DNA of 64,000 nucleotides from a virus. Lineage: Duplodnaviria; Caudoviricetes. A program made the translations under genes and the position numbers. The notes below the pieces were generated by a model. It was not told the DNA's origin and did no database searches. It saw only the letters and a list, made by a program, of their open reading frames with translations. Shown here piece by piece: positions 25,884 to 63,998 of this stretch. The stretch lies in IMG/VR virus record IMGVR_UViG_3300014204_000110. The stretch is one strand, 5' to 3'. Positions within the stretch are counted from its first letter, which is position 1, and the number at the start of each line of letters is the position of its first letter.

Positions 25884-27032
25884 TTACCTTCTGTATTTAT
25901 CTATTACAGTTATAAGTTTTTGAGTAGATTTATTCCAACTATAGTTATTAGCCATAAAATCTGCTAAAGCCTCGCTCTTATTAGTATATTTTGTTTGATC
26001 ATTAAAAGTTTCTTCAAGTTTAGATACATAATTATCTATATTAATATCTAACCAGTCTCCTTGATCACTTTTAAACCAAAAACCATCTTCAGCAGTAACA
26101 TATCCATTAGATTGAACTATAAGGTCTGTCTGTATATCTGGAGATCCTGGCACATATTCATTATGTCCAGTACAAAGAGTTGTAATTGTAGGAAGTCCAC
26201 AACCCATGTTTTGACTAAGACATAAATTCCATCCTTCAGAACGACTTATACTTATACCAACATTAGCTGAATGTATTAAAGATGGAACATTACATACTGG
26301 TATTGTAGGAGTAGTAAAATAAATATCACAAGATTTATATGTGAAAAGATGAGCTTTACCATTAAATCCTTTATATTCAAATCCATGCATTGTAGGATTA
26401 ACACCAGTCCAACAATTTAAATTCTTAAAAGGATGATCTTGAACATTATTTATAAAAGGATTAAAAGTATGACATATAAGTGCTACTTCTCGTTCTTTCA
26501 TGAGATTAATAAATGTTCTGATAGTAACGTCAGTATTCTTACGTTCTTCTCTTTTACCAGATGTTATATATGTGAACTTCTTTGTATCGATGTATTTATC
26601 TACTGGTATTGTATTAAATAGTGTATCATCAATACCTTCATTTATGACTTCGATAGGTTTAGAAAAATTATATTGTTCAAGAAGTTTTTTATGCTCTTCT
26701 GTTGTTGTAAGAATAATATCTGTTGGACCATTCTCAAGCATATGTCTAGAAACTTCTTTAAGTTTAGTTGTTTCAAAGATTGAGAAGGTAAGAAGAGGTG
26801 AACCACAAGCTTGGTTCGATAGGTTATCATGGAAGCAAAATATACTTGGAGATTTATAATCAAATTTTGTTGAAGTTGCATGTTTGAAATACATCTCATA
26901 GAAAGGATCAAGTTCAACTTGTCCAATTGGAGTAAGATTAACTTCTTGTCCATTTTCTATAAGAGCTTTTAAAATGTTTAGATTATGTAAAGAATATCCA
27001 AGATTTCCGACACTGCCATAAAGGTTGATCAT
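25884..27032 (-). CDS. GT-B (GT4-like) glycosyltransferase
   Basis: GKREERKN; SRSEGWNLCLSQNMGCGLPTITT. Confidence 0.85.
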   Translation of the reverse strand: MINLYGSVGNLGYSLHNLNILKALIENGQEVNLTPIGQVELDPFYEMYFKHATSTKFDYKSPSIFCFHDNLSNQACGSPLLTFSIFETTKLKEVSRHMLENGPTDIILTTTEEHKKLLEQYNFSKPIEVINEGIDDTLFNTIPVDKYIDTKKFTYITSGKREERKNTDVTIRTFINLMKEREVALICHTFNPFINNVQDHPFKNLNCWTGVNPTMHGFEYKGFNGKAHLFTYKSCDIYFTTPTIPVCNVPSLIHSANVGISISRSEGWNLCLSQNMGCGLPTITTLCTGHNEYVPGSPDIQTDLIVQSNGYVTAEDGFWFKSDQGDWLDINIDNYVSKLEETFNDQTKYTNKSEALADFMANNYSWNKSTQKLITVIDKYRR

Positions 27033-29621: not shown

Positions 29622-30674
29622 CTAGAAGAAGTTATAAAACATTCGGTCTTTAATAATTACATTCTCATATATTTCGTTTACTGATGAAAATGTGCATCTT
29701 GGGCACTGTTTTACATCTATTGAATTATGTATATTTTTATGTTTTTCTGATCCCCATATATTACTTTCAGATATATTTCCAAGTTCAATTGAATTATCAC
29801 CACGACGATCACAGCATAATCCAATTGTTCCATCAAAACTTATATAACATGTTGTTAAACATGTATAACATTTATTAAAGGTTAGTTTAGGAGACCAATT
29901 TTCAGAAAATTTATTAACTACTGAAAATATTTTAAAATTATCATCTTCAAAATCTGATCTTGCTCTATTAATTTGTTCTTCTACAATTTTAATGATATTT
30001 TCATTAAATCGTATCATATTTCTATCAAACCAAGGATCACTTCCTGGACGCATATGAAAAAGATCACAACCAATATTTTTAGCTAATTTGATAGCATCAT
30101 ATATTTCATTATAATTTGTTGGTAAAAGTAGATATTTATAACATATTTCAAGACCTTTAGAGGTTATATTAGATATATTTCTTATAACAGTATTAAATAT
30201 GTCTTCATTAACTCCTTTTACTACTGAAAATGTTTTAGATGTTGCACAATCTACTGATATTCCTAAATAATCGCATTTTAATATAGTTTCAATATTTTTA
30301 TTTAATTTTACACCATTTGTTACAAAAGCTATTTGAATATTATTTTCTTTTAATTGATCAATAAGATAATAAGTATTATCATTAGTTAAAGGCTCCCCAC
30401 CACCCCCAATACAAATCGATGCTGTAAACCATTGATTTTTAAAGACTTGTATTAATTGATCTACTGTTTCTTTGGACATCATACCTTGTTTAGTTTGTAG
30501 TGCTTCTGCGGCATTGCAGTGTTTACAATTGAGTTGACAAATAGCACTAGGATCTACTGAAACAAATAATGGTGGAGCAATTGTATTGGTATCATATGCT
30601 TTTTTCCAATATGGAACATGTACAAGTGCTTTCATACTATTAAACGAATTATATTTATTATGCCACTCTTTCAT
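29622..30674 (-). CDS. radical SAM protein with SPASM/Twitch domain (in glycan island)
   Basis: CQLNCKHC, GGGEP, VTNG; C-terminal C...ISFDGTIGLCC...CPRC. Confidence 0.9.
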   Translation of the reverse strand: MKEWHNKYNSFNSMKALVHVPYWKKAYDTNTIAPPLFVSVDPSAICQLNCKHCNAAEALQTKQGMMSKETVDQLIQVFKNQWFTASICIGGGGEPLTNDNTYYLIDQLKENNIQIAFVTNGVKLNKNIETILKCDYLGISVDCATSKTFSVVKGVNEDIFNTVIRNISNITSKGLEICYKYLLLPTNYNEIYDAIKLAKNIGCDLFHMRPGSDPWFDRNMIRFNENIIKIVEEQINRARSDFEDDNFKIFSVVNKFSENWSPKLTFNKCYTCLTTCYISFDGTIGLCCDRRGDNSIELGNISESNIWGSEKHKNIHNSIDVKQCPRCTFSSVNEIYENVIIKDRMFYNFF

Positions 30675-41313: not shown

Positions 41314-43037
41314 TTAACCTCTATCAGGTAAATATTTAATATTATATTGTGAAAAATCCTGTGTAGGAGGCTGTACTTCTGGAATAACAGCAGGATCTAG
41401 ATATCTATCTTCTTTAAAATTACTTATATCAGTATTATCTAATATCTCTTCCCATTGCTTACAGACGTTAACCCAATCAAGCTTTTTAGCAAGTGATATT
41501 CCTTTTTGACTATATTCCTTACATAGTTCTTTACTATCATAAAGACGTTTTATTTGTAATGCTGCTTTAGAAGTATCTGCTATTGCTTTAATAAAATTTG
41601 TTCTTGGTTCATGTTCAATATCTGCAGGATCTACAAACATAAGAGTTCCTTTACCCCAATCAGCCATAGCTGAGTATTTGGTTGTAATTGTTGGTATCCC
41701 AGCACTAATTGATTCTATCAATGTGAGCGCGAAACCTTCAGAATTTGATAAAAGTATATGAGAATCAAAACAATTAATTATTTCATTGAGTTGTTCTTCT
41801 GTTGGACCAAGTCCTGGTTTAAGATTCTTATCAAATATAACTCTGTCTTGTAGATTATAATAAGCAACTAACCATTGTAGATCCCATCCGATTGTATCTT
41901 CTAGGCTACAATGAAAATAACATTTAATTTTACGTCCATTCTTTTCATAACCTTTATCTATAAACTTACGCATAGACATAAGTATTGCATCTTGTCTTTT
42001 ACGTGGTTGACATCTGCTAACACAACCTAATAGAAATGTATTATCAGTTATATCAAAATACTTTTCTCTAAGTTCTTTTTTACGATCTAAACTTAAAGGT
42101 TTCCATACTGAAGTATCTACACCATGAGGTATAACCGAAATATTAGTAAGTTCACGTCCACCTGTTACAATACGACATGTTTTATTTATAACGTTTTTAG
42201 CCCATTCTGTGAACACAATAGGCTTATCTGACATACCAATAGTTTTGATTGTATCAATAGGAGGAAGGCCAGGTCTGTTCTCTGGAGGAATTAAGGTAGG
42301 AAATAGACATTCACTATCTATTGCTAGATATGGCATGAATTTATAGCAAGGTCTATTTTTAAGATGGTTTAAATTATATAAACCCCAGATGTCGTTAATA
42401 GGTATTACAATATCTGGTTTAAAATGTTGTATTACGAAATAACTACTATCATAACCGTAATGATCTTGCATAAAGTTTGGTGCTTTGATGCAAGAACTAT
42501 GATCTGGATGTTCTATAAGATCTGGACCATTAAGTTGTGGTAGAAAATATCTTACTTGTGGATTGTCTTTAGAAACATATTCAATTATATAACCTTTTTT
42601 ACAACATCCAGTATGATCTTTAAGTTGAGAATAATAATCTATAGGATGTCCAACTGGTATTGGTATATCAGAGAATCCTAATTGTGCAATATCATATTTA
42701 CCTGTTTTACATAAATTTTTAATTATGTTATTTGCTACTGCTGCGTAGCCAGTCTTACGTTTTCTTTTTTGTTCAACTAAGTTCGTTAATCTTAGTCCGT
42801 TTGTTAGACAGCTATATGTTACCATATAGATCAGACTATATCATCATCATAGGATGCCCACTGTTTCGAATCACTTGATTCTACGCTGTTACACTCATCG
42901 CAGCTAGTCGTTGCTCTCTGCCTTTCGGCCCAGATCAGAATTGTCCTAATTAGGAGTTTCTCTGAGTTAAGTGGGTTTTAATAGCGCAAAACTTAATTAA
43001 CGCTATCACTTATAAAAAGTATCCGTTTCTTTTTCGT
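41314..43037 (-). CDS. GT4 glycosyltransferase, intron-split: exon 1 43037-43000, exon 2 42763-41314 (495 aa)
   Basis: Spliced N-terminus xKKKRILFISDSV-KRKTGYAAVA restores the GT4 start motif; PHGVD, RCQPRKRQD, SEGFALTLIES; apparent start codon ACG after AAGGGAG. Confidence 0.85.
42764..42999 (-). ncRNA. group I self-splicing intron (236 nt, no ORF, probably subgroup IA)
   Basis: P1: exon ATAGCGT pairs with GCGCTAT (U.G at splice site); P3 CCCACT/AGTGGG; P7 GACTA/TAGTC within GCAACGACTA and GATATAGTCT; P9 CTATATG-GTAA-CATATAG; terminal G; P10 GTTTT/AAAAC; removal restores the frame. Confidence 0.92.
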
Positions 43038-49572: not shown

Positions 49573-49986
49573 TTACCAAGATCTATGTTGTTCATGTATA
49601 CTTTCTACACCATCATATTCATCTATTTCCCAAAGTACATCATCTGGAATTTCTCTTATTTCTAATTCTGCACATTCTCCATTAGCTTTTTCTCCTAGAT
49701 GTTCTATAGTTTTAATAAGATCTGGATCATTTCGTTCTATATCTCTACAATAAAAATGATAATTTTTCCAATCATCTGAAGATAAAGTACATTCTTCTCC
49801 AAAATCTTTAGTAAAACAATTATTCCAACTACAAGTTAATGATGATTTAGTTTTATAAAAAGTTTTATCATTGTATGCTTTTTGATAGTAAAAATGACAT
49901 TCTTTACCTTTTAAATTTAAATAATATTTAACTGCTTCATCTGAAAGAGAAAATCCTCCATAACATCGGTTTATTGCTATTTTCAT
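49573..49986 (-). CDS. conserved phage hypothetical protein
   Basis: INRCYGGFSLS...RNDPDL...EIPDDV.W.I.EYDG.E.I.E.HRSW. Confidence 0.65.
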   Translation of the reverse strand: MKIAINRCYGGFSLSDEAVKYYLNLKGKECHFYYQKAYNDKTFYKTKSSLTCSWNNCFTKDFGEECTLSSDDWKNYHFYCRDIERNDPDLIKTIEHLGEKANGECAELEIREIPDDVLWEIDEYDGVESIHEQHRSW

Positions 49987-50330
49987 TAAAAATCTACTCC
50001 ATGTTCAAAATGATCTTTTGTTTTAAATTTTGGTAATATAGTTTCACTAAAAATACATGATGCTCCATCATCTAATGCATTTTCTTCTTCTTCTGATAAG
50101 TTTTCTATATTTGATGAAAAATTATCAAATGAATCAGCGTTTCCATCTGATCCAGAAATTATTTTTAGATTAAGACCAAAAGCTTTTTCATCTATTGGAT
50201 TTAAATGATCTATTATTTCTTTCTCTAATGGAGATAATTTTTTATAAACTTCTACATAGTCTTCTGCTTTAAGACATATCATAAAGCTACTACTTGAACT
50301 GTTACTTACAAAACCATTTCTTATTTTTAT
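49986..50330 (-). CDS. GFVSNSSSSS-motif protein, orphan copy with ATA start
   Basis: AAGGA-N6-ATA AAA ATA AGA AAT GGT TTT GTA AGT AAC AGT TCA AGT AGT AGC TTT ATG, in frame with the 98-aa ORF. Confidence 0.85.
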   Translation of the reverse strand: MKIRNGFVSNSSSSSFMICLKAEDYVEVYKKLSPLEKEIIDHLNPIDEKAFGLNLKIISGSDGNADSFDNFSSNIENLSEEEENALDDGASCIFSETILPKFKTKDHFEHGVDF

Positions 50331-52319: not shown

Positions 52320-53336
52320 ATGTCTATAAATTTACGTAGTGATGTTAATTTTATTACTGATGCTTTTAAGCAAGAAATGAATGAGATGCGTAGCTCTGAA
52401 CGTGGAGCTTATGCTAGAACTCAAAATATCGCATGGCCGTCCGAAGCGGGATGTTCGCTTGGTAAGATCAGTGTAGGTGAATGTACCAGAAAAATGTATT
52501 ATCGTATCTCTGGTGTAGCTCCTACAGAACCAATGAGTATTACTGGTAAAAATGTTTGTGATGCTGGTAATCTTTATGAAGACTATTTGATTAATAAGTT
52601 TAAAAAATATGGAATGTATAAAGATAGTCAGATTAAACTTGATTTTTTGATTCCAGATAGTAAACATAAAGTCCAGGTAAACGGTCGTATGGATTTATTA
52701 ATAGAACATAATAAACAACGATCTGTTATTGAAATAAAATCTGTAAGTGAATTTAAAGCTGCTAAAATTATGAACAGTGAGATACCACTTCCTTCATCAT
52801 CTAATCTTATGCAAGCAATGCTTTATAAATACTATACAACCTCTACAGAGGCTGGTAAAGCTCTTAATGTAGATAATGTATATCTTATGTATGTTAATCG
52901 TTCTATGGGATCTACGTTTTATTATAAAGTATGTATAGATGATAGCGGCTATGCAATACTTACATCTTATGATTTAGCTGGTCGTGAACTTGGAACTGTT
53001 AATCTTAAAGATGTTAAATCATTTGAAGATCTAGAACGTACTCCAGGTGTAAGTGAAAGTGATGAAGCTAGACTAGCTGAACTTAAAATTAATATCAAAG
53101 ATATTTTTGATAAGTTTGATAAAATATATGATTATGCTAGAAGTAATACTTTACCTAAATGTGATTACAATATGATTTATACTCAAGCGCAAGCTGAATA
53201 TGAACATAATATTGGACGACTATCTAAAATGAAACTTAATAAAGTTAAAAAAGGTGAAGTAGTAGGCGATACTAAATGTCAGTATTGTGATTTTAGAACT
53301 AAATGTATGCAAGATAATGGAATAAGTTTTAAATAA
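52320..53336 (+). CDS. Cas4-like / RecB-family PD-(D/E)XK exonuclease with Fe-S cysteines
   Basis: PSEA...CTRKMYY, GNLYED, GRMDLL, EIKS, QAMLY, CQYCDFRTKC. Confidence 0.85.
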   Translation: MSINLRSDVNFITDAFKQEMNEMRSSERGAYARTQNIAWPSEAGCSLGKISVGECTRKMYYRISGVAPTEPMSITGKNVCDAGNLYEDYLINKFKKYGMYKDSQIKLDFLIPDSKHKVQVNGRMDLLIEHNKQRSVIEIKSVSEFKAAKIMNSEIPLPSSSNLMQAMLYKYYTTSTEAGKALNVDNVYLMYVNRSMGSTFYYKVCIDDSGYAILTSYDLAGRELGTVNLKDVKSFEDLERTPGVSESDEARLAELKINIKDIFDKFDKIYDYARSNTLPKCDYNMIYTQAQAEYEHNIGRLSKMKLNKVKKGEVVGDTKCQYCDFRTKCMQDNGISFK

Positions 53337-55630: not shown

Positions 55631-55678
55631 AAAGCTCCTTTTAGTATATAATATACTATCAGGAGCTTATAAAGTCAA
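55631..55678 (-). promoter_or_regulatory. promoter TTGACT-N17-TATATT embedded in a long inverted repeat covering the -10 box and RBS
   Basis: -35 at 55673-78, -10 at 55650-55; AAGCTCCT..TAGTATAT-T-ATATACTA..AGGAGCTT. Confidence 0.8.
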
Positions 55679-55690
55679 TATAATAATGTA

Positions 55691-56020
55691 TTAACAATAA
55701 TAATCGTGATCTATCCATTCACAGGTTACTTGTTTATCTAGAAACTTAGAAATACTTTCTTCTACGTCTTTTTTAAATTGTCCCATAGTTTCATCATCTT
55801 TCATATATTGTGGATTTCTACCAAGAAATGTTTGCGCTGTATTTAATTCAAAATCTGTATGATAATGAGGACAATCTTCAATTTCATCAAGATCGTAAGT
55901 ACTATCTAAATTATATTTATCTTTACATATTTTTTTAAATTCATCATAATCTATTCGATATCCATATATCATGTAACTAGATGAACTACTATTTGATACA
56001 AAACCGTTTCTAATTTTCAT
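55691..56020 (-). CDS. GFVSNSSSSS-motif protein
   Basis: MKIRNGFVSNSSSSSYMI. Confidence 0.9.
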   Translation of the reverse strand: MKIRNGFVSNSSSSSYMIYGYRIDYDEFKKICKDKYNLDSTYDLDEIEDCPHYHTDFELNTAQTFLGRNPQYMKDDETMGQFKKDVEESISKFLDKQVTCEWIDHDYYC

Positions 56021-56371
56021 TTAACATTCTCCATCATCTATAATAAAACTATCTTTAGAAACCATTTCTTTAGTAAGTCTACAGCCATAAAGTCCAGCAT
56101 ATGGTTTATCATAGTCTTCACTTCCAGCACTAAACTTTTTTATTACATATCCTTGTTTTAGTAATTTAATAGCTTTTTTATAATCTTTACGATTGTTAAA
56201 TTCTTCATCATTTAACCAATCATAATATTCTCTAAATTCAGCTTCGGTTCTTATAAATGTTATATCTTTTTTTGGAATAGTCATTATAATATTTAGATCT
56301 TCATCTTCTTTTTGTACTATCATAAAGCTGCTAGATGAACTATTACTTACGAATCCTGCTCTTATTTTCAT
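56021..56371 (-). CDS. GFVSNSSSSS-motif protein
   Basis: MKIRAGFVSNSSSSSFMI. Confidence 0.9.
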   Translation of the reverse strand: MKIRAGFVSNSSSSSFMIVQKEDEDLNIIMTIPKKDITFIRTEAEFREYYDWLNDEEFNNRKDYKKAIKLLKQGYVIKKFSAGSEDYDKPYAGLYGCRLTKEMVSKDSFIIDDGEC

Positions 56372-56380
56372 ACTTACTCC

Positions 56381-56797
56381 TTAATAATTATCATTACTTA
56401 TATATTGTATATATGTTCTTAATTGTTTTGGATGTATATTATATTTAGCTAACTTTTCTTTAATTTGGTTATCATCTAGTTCATCAAGTTCTACCACTAC
56501 ACCATCTAGTCCATCATTTTCATTTGAAATATCTATTCCAATGATAATTTCTCCAGCTTCTTCACCATCAAAATAACTTCTAATTGTTTCAATTTCTAAA
56601 CCATCTTTAGATAATTTACTATATAATCGATCTTGAACAAAAGCATCTTTATCTGTAGGTTTGTTTAAATTATAACAATCTTCATCAGAAGTATCTATAT
56701 TAAATAATTTAATACATTCATCTGTATTAACTTTTGTTCCTCGTATAACAAAACTGGAACTACTAGAATTACTAACAAATCCATTTCTAATTTTCAT
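56381..56797 (-). CDS. GFVSNSSSSS-motif protein
   Basis: MKIRNGFVSNSSSSSFVI. Confidence 0.9.
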   Translation of the reverse strand: MKIRNGFVSNSSSSSFVIRGTKVNTDECIKLFNIDTSDEDCYNLNKPTDKDAFVQDRLYSKLSKDGLEIETIRSYFDGEEAGEIIIGIDISNENDGLDGVVVELDELDDNQIKEKLAKYNIHPKQLRTYIQYISNDNY

Positions 56798-57163
56798 TTA
56801 ATAACCTCCTTCACCTTCAATTACGGTAATATTACTATTTGATAAATCTTTAATACCTCGATCAAGTAAAAATTGTTCAATTGGATCTTCATAGTTATCA
56901 CTACTCATATTTAAAATTATAATATTACCATGAGTTTTTAAGTAATTATTAAGTTTAATAAATTCTTCTTTTTGGTTGTCATCATCATAATATCTATCTT
57001 TTATGAAATCCCAAAGTTCATCTTCAGATGTGATTGTTTGTTCTAGATATTTAGATAAATCTGCTTCTATTTCTACTTTAACTTTTAATTTATTTTGATC
57101 GATAGCTGCTATAATAAAACTAGATGATGAACTATTTGATACAAATCCTGTTCTTAATTTCAT
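56798..57163 (-). CDS. GFVSNSSSSS-motif protein
   Basis: MKLRTGFVSNSSSSSFII. Confidence 0.9.
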   Translation of the reverse strand: MKLRTGFVSNSSSSSFIIAAIDQNKLKVKVEIEADLSKYLEQTITSEDELWDFIKDRYYDDDNQKEEFIKLNNYLKTHGNIIILNMSSDNYEDPIEQFLLDRGIKDLSNSNITVIEGEGGY

Positions 57164-57465
57164 GAATAATGTTCTCCTGCATATACTTTTGCTTTATCTG
57201 TTAGATTAAATTCTTTTTGAAGTTCTTTTTCGTTTTCTAATATTGTTGATATATCTATACATCCATAATCATATTCTGATACATAAGTGTATTTACCTAT
57301 TCCAAATTTTTCATTGTTTGTATAATTACTTAAAACAACATAATCTGAATTTAAACAGTCGTTATTAATTTTTTCAACTAATTCTTCTGTTTCATCGCAT
57401 TCTATTCCAACAATAATAAAACTAGATGAGCTAGAGTTACTTACAAATCCGCTACGTATCTTCAT
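57160..57465 (-). CDS. GFVSNSSSSS-motif protein
   Basis: MKIRSGFVSNSSSSSFII. Confidence 0.9.
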   Translation of the reverse strand: MKIRSGFVSNSSSSSFIIVGIECDETEELVEKINNDCLNSDYVVLSNYTNNEKFGIGKYTYVSEYDYGCIDISTILENEKELQKEFNLTDKAKVYAGEHYS

Positions 57466-57897
57466 TTAACCGTTCCTTCCAGCTCCATAGGAGTATTGAA
57501 AACTTTGAACTCCAGTATTATGTCCTATTCCAAATATAGTTTGTCCTATAGGCTCAAAATCATCACAATCTATATCGTAATTGGTATCACCATCTGGATC
57601 TTCTTGAATATCTTCTCCATAATTAACTTTAATATATTTATCTTCAAATTTAGTTGGATCTATTTTTATTGAAACTTTATTACCATCAAAAGCTTCATTA
57701 TAAAAACTTTTATCTTTTTCTCGATAACATCTATCCCAACCTGATTTTTCTATAATTTCTTTTACTGTAAGAATTTCATAATCTATATGATTACTTTTAC
57801 AATATTCGGTAAATTTAGTTTCATCTATAAGTTTTCCAATTCCTATAATATAACTAGAACTACTGCTATTACTTACAAAGCCTTGTCTGATTTTCAT
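57466..57897 (-). CDS. GFVSNSSSSS-motif protein
   Basis: MKIRQGFVSNSSSSSYII. Confidence 0.9.
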   Translation of the reverse strand: MKIRQGFVSNSSSSSYIIGIGKLIDETKFTEYCKSNHIDYEILTVKEIIEKSGWDRCYREKDKSFYNEAFDGNKVSIKIDPTKFEDKYIKVNYGEDIQEDPDGDTNYDIDCDDFEPIGQTIFGIGHNTGVQSFQYSYGAGRNG

Positions 57898-58361
57898 ATA
57901 TAATATCCTTTACTAATTATTTCATTTTTAGGTATTTCTTCGTAACACTTTTTATTTTTAAAACTTTCATGTATCCATTTACCTTGCATAAGATATAAAT
58001 GACCTAAATTAACACAAACTGTTACATAATCTTGATCTTTATTATATATAAGAGTATATTGTCCATAATGACAATCTGCTTGGAATGAGATATTATTATT
58101 TAATAAAAATTCTAATGGTTCGTCTTCATTACAAGTTACATAATATCCATAATTATAATTTTTATCTTTATTAGCTATTATAGCATCTGAATTATTTTCT
58201 ACTTGATCTGGATAATATGCATAAGTTTCATAGAATCCATAATCTTTTATCTTTTTAACGTCTTCATCTGATAAGATAGTATCATCAAACGTCATTTTAT
58301 GTTTAACTATAAAACTACTTGAAGATGAGTTACTTACAAAACCGTATCGTATTTTACTCAT
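57894..58361 (-). CDS. GFVSNSSSSS-motif protein
   Basis: MSKIRYGFVSNSSSSSFIV; start corrected to 58361. Confidence 0.9.
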   Translation of the reverse strand: MSKIRYGFVSNSSSSSFIVKHKMTFDDTILSDEDVKKIKDYGFYETYAYYPDQVENNSDAIIANKDKNYNYGYYVTCNEDEPLEFLLNNNISFQADCHYGQYTLIYNKDQDYVTVCVNLGHLYLMQGKWIHESFKNKKCYEEIPKNEIISKGYYI

Positions 58362-58821
58362 TATCATTACCACCTTGTATATATGATTTTTCATTAAATA
58401 TAAAATTATTTAAAGTTTCTTTATCTTTGAATATAGATAAATCTCCAATACTTTGATGATCAATATAACCATCGATTATTTTTGTTCCATCATCATCTGA
58501 ATGTAATATTATACATTTACACTTAGTTTTTTCTTTTATAAGATCTGATAACATTTTTACAAGATCGTGTCTTTTAGCATATAAAGCTTGCATGTATGAC
58601 CACATTATTTTATCTGTCCAAGCATGATATGTAGTGTTTTCCCATCCAAATTCATTATGTCCAAAATTAGAGTCAATAGTTATAGTTCTTCCAGAACAAT
58701 CTGGATAATAAAAATTGGTTTGTATATCATTTCGCAAATTAATAGTTTTATTATATTCTTTAGCTATAACTACAAAGTTGCTAGATGAGCTGTTACTCAC
58801 AAATCCATTACGTACTTTCAT
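58354..58821 (-). CDS. GFVSNSSSSS-motif protein
   Basis: MKVRNGFVSNSSSSNFVV. Confidence 0.9.
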   Translation of the reverse strand: MKVRNGFVSNSSSSNFVVIAKEYNKTINLRNDIQTNFYYPDCSGRTITIDSNFGHNEFGWENTTYHAWTDKIMWSYMQALYAKRHDLVKMLSDLIKEKTKCKCIILHSDDDGTKIIDGYIDHQSIGDLSIFKDKETLNNFIFNEKSYIQGGNDNE

Positions 58822-58824
58822 GTT

Positions 58825-59238
58825 TTACTCCACTATAAATAATTCGAAAGAACTAAGTGCTTCTCCAACTTTAAATCTTTTACCAATACACCAAATATGT
58901 AAAAGTTTACTTTTTTTAAGACAATCTATGTTCCAACTATATACTGGTCTACTTGTTGGTATACTTCCAGACCATTGGCCATATCCACCAATTCCATTAA
59001 GATGTAATACATCACTACATCCACTAAGACGTTTAATTGGTAAATTATCTTTTACTGCAATAAAATCCATTGTTGTATAACCACTATCATGAACGCGATT
59101 AGTTGGAATTATAATTAAACTATCAAAAATTCCTATATCTTCATTCCATTCACGTCTAGATATTTCTAGAAGTTCTTTTTTACTCATCAAGTTTATACTT
59201 TTTACTTCTACTTTTGGTTCGCTTCGTAAATTGATCAT
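58825..59238 (-). CDS. hypothetical protein (MINLR N-terminus) inside the array
   Basis: AAGGA RBS; HDSGY..MD...GCSDVLHL.GIGG.G. Confidence 0.65.
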   Translation of the reverse strand: MINLRSEPKVEVKSINLMSKKELLEISRREWNEDIGIFDSLIIIPTNRVHDSGYTTMDFIAVKDNLPIKRLSGCSDVLHLNGIGGYGQWSGSIPTSRPVYSWNIDCLKKSKLLHIWCIGKRFKVGEALSSFELFIVE

Positions 59239-59839
59239 ATTTATCCTTAGAATCTTGATAACGTCGTATATTTAAGCCAGTATATGCTTCAGGAGGTTTA
59301 TTATTTATTTCAGTAAAAGTTTTACCAGTATAACATTGTGGACAACATATTGTATTTTTGTTAAATATATATTTTGGATATTCAAAATGTTTATTACATA
59401 ATTCCTGATTAGAATTATATGGTATGTTATAAACAATTATATCATTATTAAAATTCCAGAAACCAATATTTTCATTAAGATCTAAGTCATCAGTATATAT
59501 AAAATTATATTTATTAAGTTCGGATTTAGTGGTCCAATCTTCATTATTGCAAGTATCTATAAATATATTATTATTTTCTACCCAAATATAAGTATCATAA
59601 TTACAACTTGGAAATGTTATAGGAATTGAATTGGTTATAAAATCTTTATTTGATTTAACTAAGTTATTAAATTTCTTAAGTTGATCTTTTTTATATTGTA
59701 TATATTGGCGATCGTCTGATAATCTAGAAGTAATCATTCCAGTAAGCATATCTCTTGTCAGTTGTATTGTATCAGTGTAATCTTTTATTATAAAACTAGA
59801 AGAACTACTATTTGATACAAAACCAGATCTAATTTTCAT
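59180..59839 (-). CDS. GFVSNSSSSS-motif protein with C-terminal Cys cluster
   Basis: MKIRSGFVSNSSSSSFII; C.KH...CCPQC. Confidence 0.9.
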   Translation of the reverse strand: MKIRSGFVSNSSSSSFIIKDYTDTIQLTRDMLTGMITSRLSDDRQYIQYKKDQLKKFNNLVKSNKDFITNSIPITFPSCNYDTYIWVENNNIFIDTCNNEDWTTKSELNKYNFIYTDDLDLNENIGFWNFNNDIIVYNIPYNSNQELCNKHFEYPKYIFNKNTICCPQCYTGKTFTEINNKPPEAYTGLNIRRYQDSKDKYDQFTKRTKSRSKKYKLDE

Positions 59840-59842
59840 TAA

Positions 59843-60124
59843 TTATCTCCATTCAACTTTATCTTGATCAATTCCAATTAAAGATAAATATTTATACATA
59901 TCAAAATTATCCATAAACACATAACCTTCAACAAAATCATCTGTTACTGTAATATCCCATTGAAAATTAAGATCATCATCGTAACAACCACATTTATATC
60001 CAGCTTGTTTATCTATCTCAATATGATTCTGTATCTTTATAATTTGAGAGTTTGTTATATTAGAACGACCTATAATAAAGCTACTACTGCTACTATTACT
60101 AACGAAACCTATACGAGTCTTCAT
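59843..60124 (-). CDS. GFVSNSSSSS-motif protein
   Basis: MKTRIGFVSNSSSSSFII. Confidence 0.9.
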   Translation of the reverse strand: MKTRIGFVSNSSSSSFIIGRSNITNSQIIKIQNHIEIDKQAGYKCGCYDDDLNFQWDITVTDDFVEGYVFMDNFDMYKYLSLIGIDQDKVEWR

Positions 60125-60693
60125 GTATCATTCCTTGAAATTATAGATATAACATTATTTTCTGCTAAATATATTATACATTCTTCTATTGGTGTTTTCC
60201 AATGTTGATCTACTGTTATATATACAAGTTTATCTTCTTTTATATTTTTTAAAGTATCTAATTCTTTTTGTAATTCATTAATTATATTATTATTATAATC
60301 AATATTATTTTTTATAGAAGTAAATAAATATTTAATTTCATCATGTTCAACGTCATGTATAATATAATCATAATCTAATTTTGAATTTTTGGTATTTTCT
60401 ACCATTAATAATATTTCATTTATATTTGGAATTTTTAATAGTTCATTATATTTGTTTAATAAATTTTCATCTTTTTTAATTACTTTTTTATATTCTTTTA
60501 TTTTATTTTTTATTTCTTTAATTTTATCATTTTGATTTATAAAGATACTTTCTTTTTTATCTTTATTGTATATTTGACATAAATCAGTATATATTTTTAT
60601 TAAATTTTCTTGTTCTTTAGGAATATTTGATGGAATTCCTAATATAAAAGATGAACTACTACTGTTACTTACAAAACCATGTCTAGTTTTCAT
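60121..60693 (-). CDS. GFVSNSSSSS-motif protein with coiled-coil insert
   Basis: MKTRHGFVSNSSSSSFIL. Confidence 0.9.
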   Translation of the reverse strand: MKTRHGFVSNSSSSSFILGIPSNIPKEQENLIKIYTDLCQIYNKDKKESIFINQNDKIKEIKNKIKEYKKVIKKDENLLNKYNELLKIPNINEILLMVENTKNSKLDYDYIIHDVEHDEIKYLFTSIKNNIDYNNNIINELQKELDTLKNIKEDKLVYITVDQHWKTPIEECIIYLAENNVISIISRNDT

Positions 60694-60898
60694 TTTTTCT
60701 TTTATTTTCTATTTCTTCAAATGATTTAGGTAATTTTTGTCCAAGATATATAGGAGTTAGTCTTAAAGTTCTTTTATAACTATTGATGTGTTTTTGAGCA
60801 TCTATAGTGTTTGGACAACTTTTACATGGAGTAAGAAATCCTACATTTGGAGCAAAACAATTATGAGAATTTTCTGAATCTGGATGTGTACATTTCAT
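60683..60898 (-). CDS. small Cys-rich protein
   Basis: GAGGT RBS; C..C..PCKSC. Confidence 0.55.
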   Translation of the reverse strand: MKCTHPDSENSHNCFAPNVGFLTPCKSCPNTIDAQKHINSYKRTLRLTPIYLGQKLPKSFEEIENKRKNEN

Positions 60899-61072
60899 TT
60901 ATACCTCAACATATAATACTTTATTTTTTATTTTATAAGAACGTTTTGATTCAACCCAATCTTTAGATTTAAGTTCAGCTGCTTCTTCATAAGATTCAGC
61001 TAATCTATAATTCCAAAATCTTTGTGGTATTTGTGCATTTCCAGATACAAATAACTGTTTAAAATCACTCAT
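60899..61072 (-). CDS. 57-aa hypothetical protein (absent from ORF track)
   Basis: GAGGT RBS; MSDFKQLF...VLYVEV; fills the gap exactly. Confidence 0.55.
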   Translation of the reverse strand: MSDFKQLFVSGNAQIPQRFWNYRLAESYEEAAELKSKDWVESKRSYKIKNKVLYVEV

Positions 61073-62050
61073 TTAAACCTCATATAGTGGACAATTACGG
61101 TTATTAGCTAAAAGTTTTTTTATTTTATCTTTATTAAAAATGGTTATTATCTTGCATATTTTTTTTAAGTATTTTTCAGAAAATCCTTGTTTTAATGCAA
61201 TATTAATTTTTTTATGAATCCATTGTATATTACTTAATGTATATCCAATAGAATTATCAATTCTATCTAATGATGCTGTTGATAGTTTTTTATATCCAAG
61301 TGTTATTGGTAATCCAGTTAAAGCGCAATATCCTTGTTGTTTCTCGAATTTTTTATATGCATCTTCTATTGTTATTGAAAATTCTAAATTTCTTATTTTT
61401 GCTTTTTTTTCAATATCAGACCATTGTGTTTTATATAAATTTTTATATCCAGAAAACGATCGATTTTGTTTTATTACTGGTATATTTGTTATTTTATTTT
61501 TAATTGGATTAATAATTAAATAGCAAAAATATAAAAATATATCATTAGATAGATTTAATTTCATTTTATTAATATCTTTATGTATCCATCTAATATTATC
61601 TAGATTATATGATTTTGATGAATCTATTCTATCTAGTGATGCCGTTTTATTTTTATTTCTATAATCTCCAAGGTTTATTGGTAATCCTGATAGAATACAT
61701 TTATGATTTTGTTTATATAATAAATCTACTGCTTGTTCTATAGATATGTTAAATTTTATTTTTCTTGTTTTTGCGTTATTTTTAATACCAATCCATGTTC
61801 TTGCTGATAATTCTTTATATCCTTTAAAACGATAATTATCTTTTCCTTTTTTATATTGATAGAATAAACATCCACAAGAATAGGTGTGAAATAAATAAGA
61901 ATATGGTTTTTTTAATAATTTTCCACATACGCAATTATATTCAACATACTCATTGAATTTATAATCTATTAGTTTAAATCCTGCTTCTTTAAATTTTAAT
62001 TTGTATTTATTTAATGTTTTTAAATGTTGTTTTTTATTAGATTTATTCAT
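61073..62050 (-). mobile_element. tandem two-domain HNH-like (His-Me finger) homing endonuclease
   Basis: Two copies of C.L[ST]GLPI...ASLDRID....Y...NI.WIHK.IN; AAGGAG RBS before MNKSNKK at 62050. Confidence 0.75.
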
Positions 62051-62110
62051 ATTATATACTCCTTTATTATAGTATAGGAATATATAACACAAATAGCTTT
62101 TAAAAAAACA

Positions 62111-63193
62111 TTAATCAGGATCTATATCAAAAGTTATACATTTTCTACAGCCTGTGGAATAACATGAGTCTAGAGATAGTTTTCTATATTTATTTAGTTT
62201 TTCATTTAACCATACATCTTTTACAAAATTATTACAGTTTAATACATCTAATCCTGTTTCCCATTCACCTTCTCCTTCAGTGAATGAACATGGAAAATAA
62301 AAACCATCAACGTTAATATATGATGAAAATAATCCAAAACTTTCACAACTTTCAATAGATTCAGAAATTGTTTTAACTTTTTCTCTAGACATTTCTGATT
62401 GTTGTAGATAAAGTTCTAGATTTCTAGCATGACAGGAATCCATGCCTAGTGGAATATTATTACTTAAACAATATTCAAATAGTTTATTATAATCGTTTTG
62501 AGATAAATTTGTAAAGTGATCTTTAGCTTTACCGCGTGGTTTAAGTTTAAGTAGCACTACAGCATTAAGTTTTTCTAATCTTTTATCATTTTGAATATCT
62601 TTTAAAACTTCATATACAAAATTAATATTTTCATTCATTACTGTTAAATGTATATTTGTCTGTTTAATATCATTATTTATAAATTTTTGAACTGTGTTAT
62701 AACACATATTTTTATCATATTCATAAGCTGATACAGCAACAGCACCTATATATTTACATGATTCTTTAATAATTTCATCATCTGCATCAAATCCAGATAA
62801 TGTAAAATTTGGTATAATCCCATGTTCTCTAGTATATTTTAAAATTTTTATAAAATCTGGATGACTTTTAATTCCTGTTATACCATAAGCTATTTGACAT
62901 AAAATACTATTATCAAATTTATGAAATATTTTTTTAAACATTTCAAAATCTACTAATTTAATATCATCAACTTTTGAATCTTTATAACAAAATTTACATT
63001 TATTAGCATTAATACATCCATTTACGACCAGCTCCCAGTCCAAAATTTCTGGTCCGTAAAGAGAATATAAAGGATCATCTTCTTCAGTTTTACCCCAACG
63101 TTCAAAGTATCCAGTATGTTTATTAAAGTTAAAATTATAATCATCACTTCTAAATAATTTAAAATCTTTTGTATCTTTAATCATTGGTCTCAT
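62111..63193 (-). CDS. radical SAM protein with CX5CX2C motif and SPASM/Twitch-like C-terminus
   Basis: GPEILDWEL..GCINANKCKFCY; PNFTLSG; GAVAVS; LKPRGK; CES....YINVDG..FPCSF; CYSTGCRKC. Confidence 0.9.
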   Translation of the reverse strand: MRPMIKDTKDFKLFRSDDYNFNFNKHTGYFERWGKTEEDDPLYSLYGPEILDWELVVNGCINANKCKFCYKDSKVDDIKLVDFEMFKKIFHKFDNSILCQIAYGITGIKSHPDFIKILKYTREHGIIPNFTLSGFDADDEIIKESCKYIGAVAVSAYEYDKNMCYNTVQKFINNDIKQTNIHLTVMNENINFVYEVLKDIQNDKRLEKLNAVVLLKLKPRGKAKDHFTNLSQNDYNKLFEYCLSNNIPLGMDSCHARNLELYLQQSEMSREKVKTISESIESCESFGLFSSYINVDGFYFPCSFTEGEGEWETGLDVLNCNNFVKDVWLNEKLNKYRKLSLDSCYSTGCRKCITFDIDPD

Positions 63194-63213: not shown

Positions 63214-63516
63214 TTAAATACATCCACCACAACATCCATATCGTATATTATCGTTTACCAGTTCTAATGCTCTTTGTTTGAGATTTTCAGGAAAGTTACT
63301 TGGATAATTACTTATATTCCAAGATCCTTCATGAGAATTATAATCAGAATCTATATATCCGCCAGAAGATAAACTATATGCTTCAAAAGTATAAATAATA
63401 TTATTTATTCTTAATACTAATGTTCCAGAACATAAGTTTGGATAACTCCCATCATAACTAATTACATCATCTGGTAATTGTTCTATTGGTTCTGCACGTT
63501 CTCTTAAATTAATCAT
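63214..63516 (-). CDS. hypothetical protein (MINLR N-terminus; GCCGGCI C-terminus)
   Basis: YDGSYPNLCSG.L...SGG...W...N.NI..GCCGGCI. Confidence 0.65.
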   Translation of the reverse strand: MINLRERAEPIEQLPDDVISYDGSYPNLCSGTLVLRINNIIYTFEAYSLSSGGYIDSDYNSHEGSWNISNYPSNFPENLKQRALELVNDNIRYGCCGGCI

Positions 63517-63524
63517 AAACTTCC

Positions 63525-63998
63525 TTAATGATTAGAAATTCGTATATGTTCTATATTTTTAAATACATTACCATGTTCCATTGTACAACCAGTATGATTA
63601 TCATCAGCATATTCAACTATATAAATGAAATTCTTTTTATTATCTTTAATAAAAGCTTTAGCATCTAACGCACCAAGTTCTTTTTCTAAAATATTTTGTT
63701 GGTCCCAATATTTAAATGATTCTTTACGTTTATTTTCTAATTGTTTATATTCTTTATGATTTTCAAGATATTGTTTTTTATTTTTTGACCAAGTATCATA
63801 AGTATCTATTTCTTTTTTTGTATATTTCTTTTTAGTAATGCTATTAATTCCATTAGAATAAGCATATTTTGGTTCTGGATTTTTTGTTTTCCATTCTCTT
63901 TCAATTTTCCATTGAGCTTCTTGAATTTTGTTAGATTCTATTTCATGTTCAATTACAAGATCTCGATATTTAAAAAGTAATTCCTGATCAAGTCCCCA
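63525..63998 (-). CDS. 5'-truncated protein, possibly another motif-family member
   Basis: Open to the window edge; coiled-coil followed by IYIVEYADD...MEHGNVF..IEHIRISNH. Confidence 0.6.
   Translation of the reverse strand, partial: WGLDQELLFKYRDLVIEHEIESNKIQEAQWKIEREWKTKNPEPKYAYSNGINSITKKKYTKKEIDTYDTWSKNKKQYLENHKEYKQLENKRKESFKYWDQQNILEKELGALDAKAFIKDNKKNFIYIVEYADDNHTGCTMEHGNVFKNIEHIRISNH

Follow-up and report, generated by a model that had tools for sequence, protein, structure and literature searches.

The DNA stretch analyzed here (referred to as the window) consists of 64,000 nucleotides (nt) of IMG/VR record IMGVR_UViG_3300014204_000110, part of an uncultured large phage (Duplodnaviria; Caudoviricetes) whose DNA is AT-rich, with about 25% GC. 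Between positions 55691 and 60693, the minus strand carries eleven closely spaced open reading frames (ORFs) of 93–219 amino acids (aa) whose products share the start M(S)K[ILVT]RxGFVSNSSSS[SN][FY], called here the tag. On the same strand, at 62111–63193, there is a gene for a radical S-adenosylmethionine (SAM) enzyme. Here we describe the tag proteins, the enzyme, and the relationship that may exist between them. Other genes in the window code for baseplate and tail proteins, glycosyltransferases, a primase-helicase, and a sigma factor.

Numbered by increasing coordinate, the tag genes of the array are m1 (55691–56020, 109 aa), m2 (56021–56371, 116 aa), m3 (56381–56797, 138 aa), m4 (56798–57163, 121 aa), m5 (57160–57465, 101 aa), m6 (57466–57897, 143 aa), m7 (57894–58361), m8 (58354–58821, 155 aa), m9 (59180–59839, 219 aa), m10 (59843–60124, 93 aa), and m11 (60121–60693, 190 aa), all on the minus strand. 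The m7 protein has 155 aa when counted from MSKIRYGF, a start that is preceded by the ribosome-binding site AAGGTGG, and the tag of m8 is a variant with the substitution S15N. The sequences that follow the tag, or bodies, include a DDETG.QFK motif in m1, which belongs to the largest body subfamily, a Cys cluster in m9, whose body, unlike all others of the array, is not net acidic, and a Lys/Glu-rich helical insert in m11. A preliminary description of this DNA, made from the sequence alone, had listed these eleven genes, and all of them are present. Its count was nonetheless too low, and one ORF inside the array (58825–59238, minus strand, 137 aa) is not a member: it starts with MINLRS, lacks the tag, and has no homologue in related loci. 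The window includes at least 13 tag proteins, i.e., the eleven in the array, a dispersed twelfth member, and a thirteenth one that runs past the window end. The twelfth gene (49986–50330, minus strand, 114 aa) lies about 5 kb from the array and has ATA where the others have ATG. This ATA is located six bases after the ribosome-binding site AAGGAAA, the 114-codon frame is unbroken, and the body is intact; the gene either uses a non-canonical initiation codon or lost its start codon very recently. The thirteenth member, m13 (63525–63998, minus strand), is located upstream of the radical-SAM gene and is represented by its C-terminal part, the N-terminus being beyond the window end. It was identified by its match to positions 131–170 of phrog_7397, and all 34 homologues found with jackhmmer in the pool of related loci have the tag.

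In the alignment of the eleven array members, M1, K2, R4, G6, F7, V8, S9, N10, and S11–S14 are invariant, and the mean pairwise identity is 86% over the 16 residues of the tag and 26% over the bodies. TCA/TCT/TCC and AGT/AGC codons are freely intermixed at the serine residues, the Arg residues are specified by AGA, CGT, or CGA, and the Gly, Phe, and Val codons as well as the sequences upstream of the genes also differ. Therefore, the conservation operates at the peptide level and is not due to a DNA repeat, in agreement with what had been concluded before. The analysis was extended to 559 non-identical tag proteins from about 150 viral loci, collected with a filter that would have admitted other residues at G6, F7, V8, S9, and S11. 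K2, R4, S9, N10, S11, and S12 were found in 100% of these proteins, G6 and F7 in 98%, and V8 in 96%, and Thr or Ala is tolerated at S13 and S14. The median body is 126 aa long, the median net charge of the bodies is −11, and 97.6% of them are net acidic.

Some database proteins (P0005, P0007–P0011, P0013, and P0019) contain two complete tags, each with its own Met-Lys. In the case of P0005 (L174, 6001–6570), the DNA confirms an unbroken frame under translation table 11. The double-tag proteins are either true tandem fusions, in which one tag is internal, or pairs of genes whose intervening stop codon was lost, a distinction that bears on whether the tag must be N-terminal. Another protein, P0161, which is of the m1 type and was recovered by a search with the body only, has the degenerate tag MRLKQDFVTNSSTTSF, where G6 is changed to D and S9 to T, and it may be a natural test case of tag tolerance.

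The family defined by the tag is very large. A profile built with the eleven members matched 19,547 proteins at E ≤ 1e-3 when compared with 1.84 billion cluster representatives (50%-identity clusters), and 143 of the top 150 matches are 90–170 aa long and have the tag at residue 1. Searches of Pfam, NCBIfam, PDB sequences, and Atlas with the tag proteins returned no named family. All eleven array members match phrog_7397, a profile of 170 positions annotated as 'unknown function', but only at its N-terminus (first 19–52 positions, E 8e-6 to 2e-3); its C-terminal part is matched only by the m13 subfamily, which we call 'core'. The m13 type is the canonical phrog_7397 protein and is present in coliphage RB16 as RB16p111. 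A tblastn search of a phage collection with m1 and m3 gave no match, a result that we attribute to masking of the serine run and to the divergence of the bodies. Among 185,579 species genomes there were only seven tag loci, all in metagenome bins, and the tag family is therefore essentially viral. The binned loci (L163–L173) carry the labels Nanoarchaeota, Peribacteria, Gammaproteobacteria, Balneolaceae, and Pirellulales, and most of them resemble binned phage contigs. The Pirellulales locus is on a 2.6-Mb contig, where the only radical-SAM match, about 5 kb from the locus, is weak (E 1.9e-9).

To compare the bodies, the tag was stripped, one profile was made for each of the 13 members, and all pairs were aligned with hhalign. 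High probabilities were obtained for m2–m4 (99.7%), m1–m3 (99.5%), and m3–m5 (81%), weak links for m7–m10, m1–m6, and m13–m4, and values below 5% for the remaining pairs. The bodies had been said to diverge almost completely; this is correct for most pairs, which have no detectable homology, but several are related once the tag is removed. At the level of sequence, the bodies of the window appear to represent roughly eight families, and these may be what is left of a single, very old superfamily. Most of the body types recur in other phages. Among 113 locus groups, the m10 type was found in 46, m1 in 41, m3 in 32, m13 in 31, and m2 in 23, and the rarer m9 type and that of the twelfth member in 14 and 13, respectively; m11 is the only orphan type, as its body has no homologue in the locus pool. 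All ten new matches of a profile made with m1-type bodies only were tagged, and no untagged homologue was found with it. A search of a 5.8-billion-protein set with a single body sequence returned the query alone. The core subfamily is distinguished by the C-terminal signature SDNDG...EHG.[IL]F...S.H-COOH, in which the Asp of SDNDG and the Glu-His of LEHG are invariant and the His is always the final residue. This signature looks like a metal or catalytic site, and a search for a known fold or family for this subfamily found none.

An AlphaFold2 (AF2) model of m1, calculated with 47 homologues, had a mean predicted local distance difference test (pLDDT) score of 85.5. In this model, residues 1–13 are coil with a pLDDT of about 55, and strand 1 begins at S14. 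The body is a compact beta-alpha-(alpha)-beta-beta-alpha-beta domain (pLDDT 85–97), to which the tail is anchored by the SSF[IV][IV] end of the tag, with S14–I18 inside strand 1. The preliminary description had considered that the motif could be a buried core strand of one shared fold; this is not so for K2–S13 in the m1 model, where the motif joins a strand only from S14 onward. Foldseek comparison of the model with PDB gave no match at E ≤ 1e-3 (the top one was SAM-AMP lyase, E 0.04), and neither did comparison with BFVD, where the top matches listed were uncharacterized viral proteins. A wide VIA-align comparison gave Z ≤ 4. As only generic small alpha/beta matches were obtained, no fold was assigned. 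The tag proteins are 90–280-aa proteins of which the body that was modeled, that of m1, is confidently folded.

The enzyme encoded at 62111–63193 (minus strand) matches phrog_7293 (E 5.7e-67). Radical-SAM enzymes bind the SAM-cleaving [4Fe-4S] cluster through three cysteines, canonically spaced as CxxxCxxC, with an aromatic residue preceding the last of them. The cysteine motif of the window enzyme is C60-x5-C66-x2-C69, with Phe68 before the last cysteine. All 43 homologues compared, which come from viral contigs, have these three cysteines; the spacing between the first and second varies from x3 to x6, and the residue before the last one is aromatic. Four other cysteines, all C-terminal (C254, C283, C302, and C352), are invariant in the same homologues, and additional ones present in the window enzyme (Cx4Cx2C near residues 346–355) are not conserved. 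The SPASM domain is defined by a C-terminal motif of seven to eight cysteines that holds two auxiliary clusters. The C-terminal cysteines that are family-wide are only four, enough for one auxiliary Fe-S cluster, as in twitch domains, and probably not for a full SPASM domain. No Pfam family, PF04055 included, matched the enzyme at E ≤ 0.01, and the only NCBIfam match was a sub-threshold one to a mycofactocin maturase (15.3 bits, with a cutoff of 265). The AF2 model of the enzyme (pLDDT 94) has a radical-SAM fold even though the PF04055 sequence model does not match, and it has a conserved N-terminal four-stranded beta region (residues 4–33) in place of a winged helix. Foldseek comparison with solved structures identified 100 chains at E ≤ 1e-3, and the best 50 of these 100 are all radical-SAM proteins. 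The best matches were SuiB (E 3e-9, template modeling score 0.66–0.68), CteB, SkfB, anSMEcpe, TigE, EpeE, and PqqE. On the basis of this model, the protein is best classified as a divergent member of the SPASM/twitch radical-SAM enzymes that modify peptides or proteins. The earlier designation as radical SAM/SPASM-type stands in that the closest models are SPASM/twitch modifiers of peptides and proteins, but it needs correction with respect to the auxiliary clusters, of which there is probably one.

The genes for the tag and the enzyme are linked in both directions. A survey that started from the tag, using the pattern GFVSNSSS in IMG/VR, yielded 466 stretches, from which 78 loci were kept. 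An enzyme homologue was found within 10 kb and on the same strand in 46 of 67 distinct locus groups, while the next real non-tag gene family was present in 10; a protein cluster present in 13 groups is a probable antisense artifact within the enzyme gene. Seven of the 27 records with no enzyme nearby hold a copy elsewhere, and these include all four of the records that are at least 90% complete. A second survey started from the enzyme with a separate, unrelated pattern and produced 79 loci, 68 of which have between one and 13 same-strand tag genes. When both surveys were pooled, 83 of 94 distinct enzyme loci had same-strand tag genes. In 67 of these loci the nearest tag gene was downstream and in the other 16 it was upstream, at a median distance of 410 nt. 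On the strand of the enzyme there were 365 tag motifs, compared with five on the opposite strand. The pooled enzymes are only 31–60% identical to that of the window, so that the co-occurrence and synteny that had been put forward as a check of the proposal hold both ways across very divergent enzymes. No third conserved gene, such as one for a protease, a protein with a RiPP (ribosomally made, post-translationally modified peptide) recognition element (RRE), an exporter, or a glycosyltransferase, was found near the tags. In cultured phages, the enzyme is present in 172 records and the canonical tag protein in 175, and the numbers per genus agree. RB16 carries both the enzyme (RB16p156) and tag proteins (RB16p111 and RB16p106), and in Vibrio phage D479, which is outside the T4-like clade, a tag gene is located upstream of the enzyme gene at a distance of 1.7 kb.

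We therefore consider it probable that the tag is a handle for, and likely the site modified by, the radical-SAM enzyme, and that both are parts of a two-component phage protein-maturation system. The enzyme would carry a site-differentiated [4Fe-4S] cluster, bound here by Cx5Cx2C, and one C-terminal auxiliary cluster. It would recognize the invariant MK[IV]RxGFVSNSSSSSF, which is the flexible tail of small, mostly acidic alpha/beta proteins, and this exposed tail would enter the active site. The 5′-deoxyadenosyl radical would then take a hydrogen atom within the invariant G6–S12 core so that a covalent change is installed. The reaction could continue as a two-electron oxidation, resulting in a cross-link or in conversion of Ser to an aldehyde, or as an epimerization. 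A candidate cross-link is a Phe7-x-Ser9 cyclophane, and the auxiliary cluster may act as an electron conduit, as in the structural neighbors of the enzyme. As each enzyme would have many substrates, the tag would remain frozen while the bodies diversify and the enzyme drifts to 31% identity. The clients may be host-takeover or counter-defense proteins. Regarding a still broader proposal, that an unprecedented modification of an invariant peptide found in more than 19,000 protein clusters is a general phage 'protein activation' that arms small acidic host-takeover or counter-defense proteins in T4-like and jumbo phages, we see the chances as evenly balanced.

Several observations weigh against this maturation system. 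Ten incomplete tag-bearing records, one of them 261 kb long and estimated to be 79% complete, have no enzyme even by profile search, and 11 of the 79 loci of the enzyme-first survey have no tag gene within 10 kb. The co-occurrence in cultured phages comes essentially from one T4-like clade and thus counts as a single, non-independent observation; in RB16-type phages, moreover, the two tag genes are about 20 kb from the enzyme. Neither Pfam nor NCBIfam detected in the enzyme an RRE or another PqqD-like leader-binding domain, and viperin-like nucleotide-modifying enzymes are also among its structural matches. The last third of the tag is within strand 1, so part of its conservation may be structural. 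Prediction of a complex of the enzyme and m1, with SAM and two 4Fe-4S clusters, scored 0.57, compared with 0.53 for a control in which the enzyme was replaced, and gives no evidence either way. The idea of one maturase and a library of clients, as formulated in the preliminary description, agrees with the synteny, the exposed tail of the m1 model, and the class of the enzyme. Binding of the tag and its covalent modification are predicted from these same three elements.

Other explanations were weighed with the same data. The tag proteins might form one divergent superfamily in which the Ser-rich N-terminus is a functional site of their own (an anion or nucleotide loop, or a metal site), with the enzyme making a small molecule that they bind, carry, or sense, or with the proteins acting as accessory subunits or regulators of the enzyme instead of being its substrates. 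The tag-less bodies do chain up (m1–m3–m5, m2–m4, m7–m10, and weakly m13–m4), and the failure of the m1-type body profile to find untagged homologues, the inclusion of S14–I18 in strand 1, the enzyme-like invariant Asp, Glu-His, and C-terminal His of the core subfamily, and the viperin-type nucleotide radical-SAM enzymes among the structural matches would all fit. However, most body pairs have no detectable homology and a pocket shared by tag and body is therefore unlikely, residues 1–13 are modeled as a detached tail, and 5–14 different paralogues per genome are hard to explain for proteins that bind a single ligand. In addition, both the auxiliary cluster of the enzyme and its best structural matches correspond to peptide and protein modifiers, while viperin has no auxiliary cluster. 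We consider this explanation fairly unlikely. A sorting or stability signal that involves no radical chemistry, such as one for capsid targeting or injection, or a degron, with the enzyme being a mere neighbor in a hyperplastic early region, seems to us quite unlikely. T4 internal proteins are diverse small proteins that have an N-terminal capsid-targeting sequence and are encoded in plastic early regions, and the layout of the tag loci, early-type arrays of diverse small proteins with a short N-terminal peptide, matches that of their loci; the tag also always starts at Met1. This explanation leaves without a reason that, of all the neighboring genes, only this enzyme family follows the tag, usually at less than 500 nt and on the same strand, in phages whose enzymes are only 31–60% identical. 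Furthermore, the bodies are strongly acidic (median −11), unlike the basic, DNA-associated internal proteins, and inspection of the tag found no L/I-x-E site of the prohead-protease type.

A role of the enzyme as an activase, which would generate a stable glycyl radical at Gly6 (R-x-G-F) and make the small proteins radical carriers like GrcA/YfiD, is very improbable. The fingerprint of glycyl radical proteins, [STIV]-x-R-[IVT]-[CSA]-G-Y-x-[GACV], is found in a C-terminal glycine loop. The invariant Arg4, Gly6, and Phe7 are loosely like its R-V-x-G-[FYW] portion and the partner is indeed a radical-SAM enzyme, but the Arg-Gly spacing is one residue short, PF01228 is not matched by the tag proteins, and the motif is N-terminal and exposed rather than part of a buried C-terminal glycine loop. 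The best 50 structural matches of the enzyme are SPASM/twitch proteins and viperins and not activases of the PFL type, and six invariant serines would have no explanation. Processing of the tag by other means, i.e., cleavage at G|F by a prepilin-peptidase-like enzyme, serinolysis to a pyruvoyl group, or O-glycosylation by phage glycosyltransferases, had been listed among the alternatives, and we regard it as extremely improbable. It was suggested by the basic-x-G-F start, which resembles a class III signal, by the serine run, and by the glycosyltransferase genes in the window (25884–27032 and 41314–42825, both on the minus strand). In prepilin-like signals, a basic leader that ends in Gly is followed by Phe, by Glu at +5, and by a hydrophobic helix of about 20 residues. 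In the tag proteins, G-F is followed by no hydrophobic helix, position +5 is Ser and not Glu, and what comes next is a Ser run and then a beta strand that belongs to a soluble acidic domain. Apart from the enzyme gene, the tags have no conserved neighbor in other phages, be it a gene for a glycosyltransferase, a peptidase, or another protein. Formation of a pyruvoyl group would need no radical-SAM enzyme, and the linkage with the enzyme is left unexplained by all of these options. The exclusive, two-way, same-strand linkage is better explained if the tag proteins are substrates of the enzyme than by any of these alternatives.

The closest known counterparts of a maturase with tagged substrates are SuiB/StrB (streptide), CteB, and SkfB. 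They are the best structural matches of the phage enzyme and share with it a radical-SAM core and a C-terminal auxiliary Fe-S domain. In these systems as well, one enzyme serves several precursors that have a common peptide and diverge elsewhere, and the genes for enzyme and substrate are adjacent and co-oriented. The differences are also considerable. The phage enzyme is only 12–16% identical to them, belongs to no Pfam or NCBIfam family, has no detectable RRE, and conserves only four auxiliary cysteines. Its proposed substrates are folded proteins of 90–280 aa with recurring body families instead of short peptides, conservation is limited to 16 residues at the very N-terminal end, neither a protease gene nor an exporter gene accompanies the system, and the system is found almost only in phages. 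The anaerobic sulfatase-maturating enzymes anSME and AtsB are radical-SAM proteins with auxiliary clusters that act on Ser or Cys in a short, near-N-terminal motif of whole proteins, and anSME is a structural match (4k39/4k36, E ~1e-6). However, the tag does not contain their (C/S)-x-(P/A)-x-R motif, the clients are proteins other than sulfatases, and the phage enzyme has one auxiliary Cys set and not two, with no membership at the sequence level. In the three-residue cyclophane (triceptide) synthases, a class of radical-SAM/SPASM enzymes covered in PMC11499958, an aromatic residue is cross-linked to the beta-carbon of the residue two positions on. The Phe7-Val8-Ser9 segment of the tag fits aromatic-x-x, including Phe-x-Ser, a likeness that is one of pattern only. 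The tag's invariant serine run and Lys2/Arg4 have no counterpart in the triceptide systems, and compared with FxsB/FxSxx-COOH, the phage enzyme has no NCBIfam FxsB match and the tag is N-terminal on proteins and not C-terminal on peptides. Phage arrays united only by a short N-terminal peptide are also known from the T4 internal proteins, but the sequence of the tag is different, it has no protease site, the bodies are acidic, and the T4 system is not known to have a dedicated radical-SAM partner. Radical-SAM/SPASM maturation of proteins, as opposed to small RiPPs, is the subject of two other, recent reports. One describes the bacterial HXS antiphage system, which acts in phage-host conflict and has a radical-SAM-matured effector with HxS repeats (PMC13128918), and the other describes thioether cross-linking of a protein by a methanogen SPASM enzyme (PMC13692751). 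According to these reports, both are cell-encoded, the modified elements are HxS repeats or Cys thioethers, and each enzyme has one or few substrates. A full-text literature search for the tag motif, for phage radical-SAM/SPASM enzymes, and for a radical-SAM protein of RB16 or RB43 found no description of the phage system. It would fit among radical-SAM maturases with tagged substrates and could constitute a new category if its chemistry or role is unprecedented.

If the proposal is correct, the tag would be a unifying biochemical handle for one of the largest unannotated families of phage proteins, with a range that goes from coliphage RB16 to 500-kb jumbo phages. The enzyme would represent a new radical-SAM branch that is virus-encoded and in which one enzyme acts on many folded-protein clients. 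As the clients are small, acidic, early-type, and fast-diversifying, a profile typical of anti-defense and host-takeover factors, the tag could guide searches for such factors. The system can be tested in cultured phages such as RB16, RB43, and the T4-like phages of Klebsiella and Enterobacter.

With respect to the expression and occurrence of the region, a new promoter had been proposed immediately after the last gene of the array. A sequence of this type, TTGACT-17-TATATT, is located at 55678–55650 (minus strand), but the sigma-70-like matches number 74 while 85 are expected from shuffled sequences, and the proposal is not confirmed. A scan of the region for promoters and terminators found no terminators, and its matches did not exceed what is expected from shuffling. 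A search of sequencing runs found the window DNA in one landfill run and one groundwater metagenome run, which may be where it came from, with no RNA run among the matches. The window also contains a second, unrelated radical-SAM-like ORF at 29622–30674 (minus strand), which has a weak QueE-like PHROG match (E 8.5e-6). Neither genes of this kind nor the glycosyltransferases are linked to tag genes in other phages.

Some ORFs close to the enzyme gene lack the tag. Two small ones at 60683–61072 (minus strand) code for 71 aa (Cys-rich) and 57 aa and have no family match and no homologues in related loci. Another ORF of 100 aa, located between m13 and the enzyme gene (63214–63516, minus strand), has the C-terminus CCGGCI, no match in Pfam or PHROG, and no homologue among 157 related loci, and is probably outside the system. 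Its start, M(S)INLR[SED], is common to four otherwise unrelated ORFs, which begin at 52320 (plus strand; a PD-(D/E)XK nuclease), 63516 (minus strand; the 100-aa ORF), 59238 (minus strand; the non-member of the array), and about 36065 (minus strand; about 62 aa). The Ile and Arg codons differ among these starts, the window has only eight INLR strings when all six frames are counted, and no such start was found among the 157 related loci. The shared start may be due to chance or may constitute another phage-specific N-terminal signature.

The radical-SAM gene had been located about 1.4 kb upstream of the array in the same orientation. This is correct as to the strand, but the gap is mostly occupied by, and exists because of the insertion of, an HNH/endonuclease VII-like homing endonuclease gene (61073–62092, minus strand; matches to phrog_3322, phrog_3118, and phrog_1035, E 1e-26 to 1e-38). 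In Vibrio phage D479 (L083, 9094–9822), an annotated homing endonuclease gene also adjoins the homologous radical-SAM gene, which may be a recurrent homing site.

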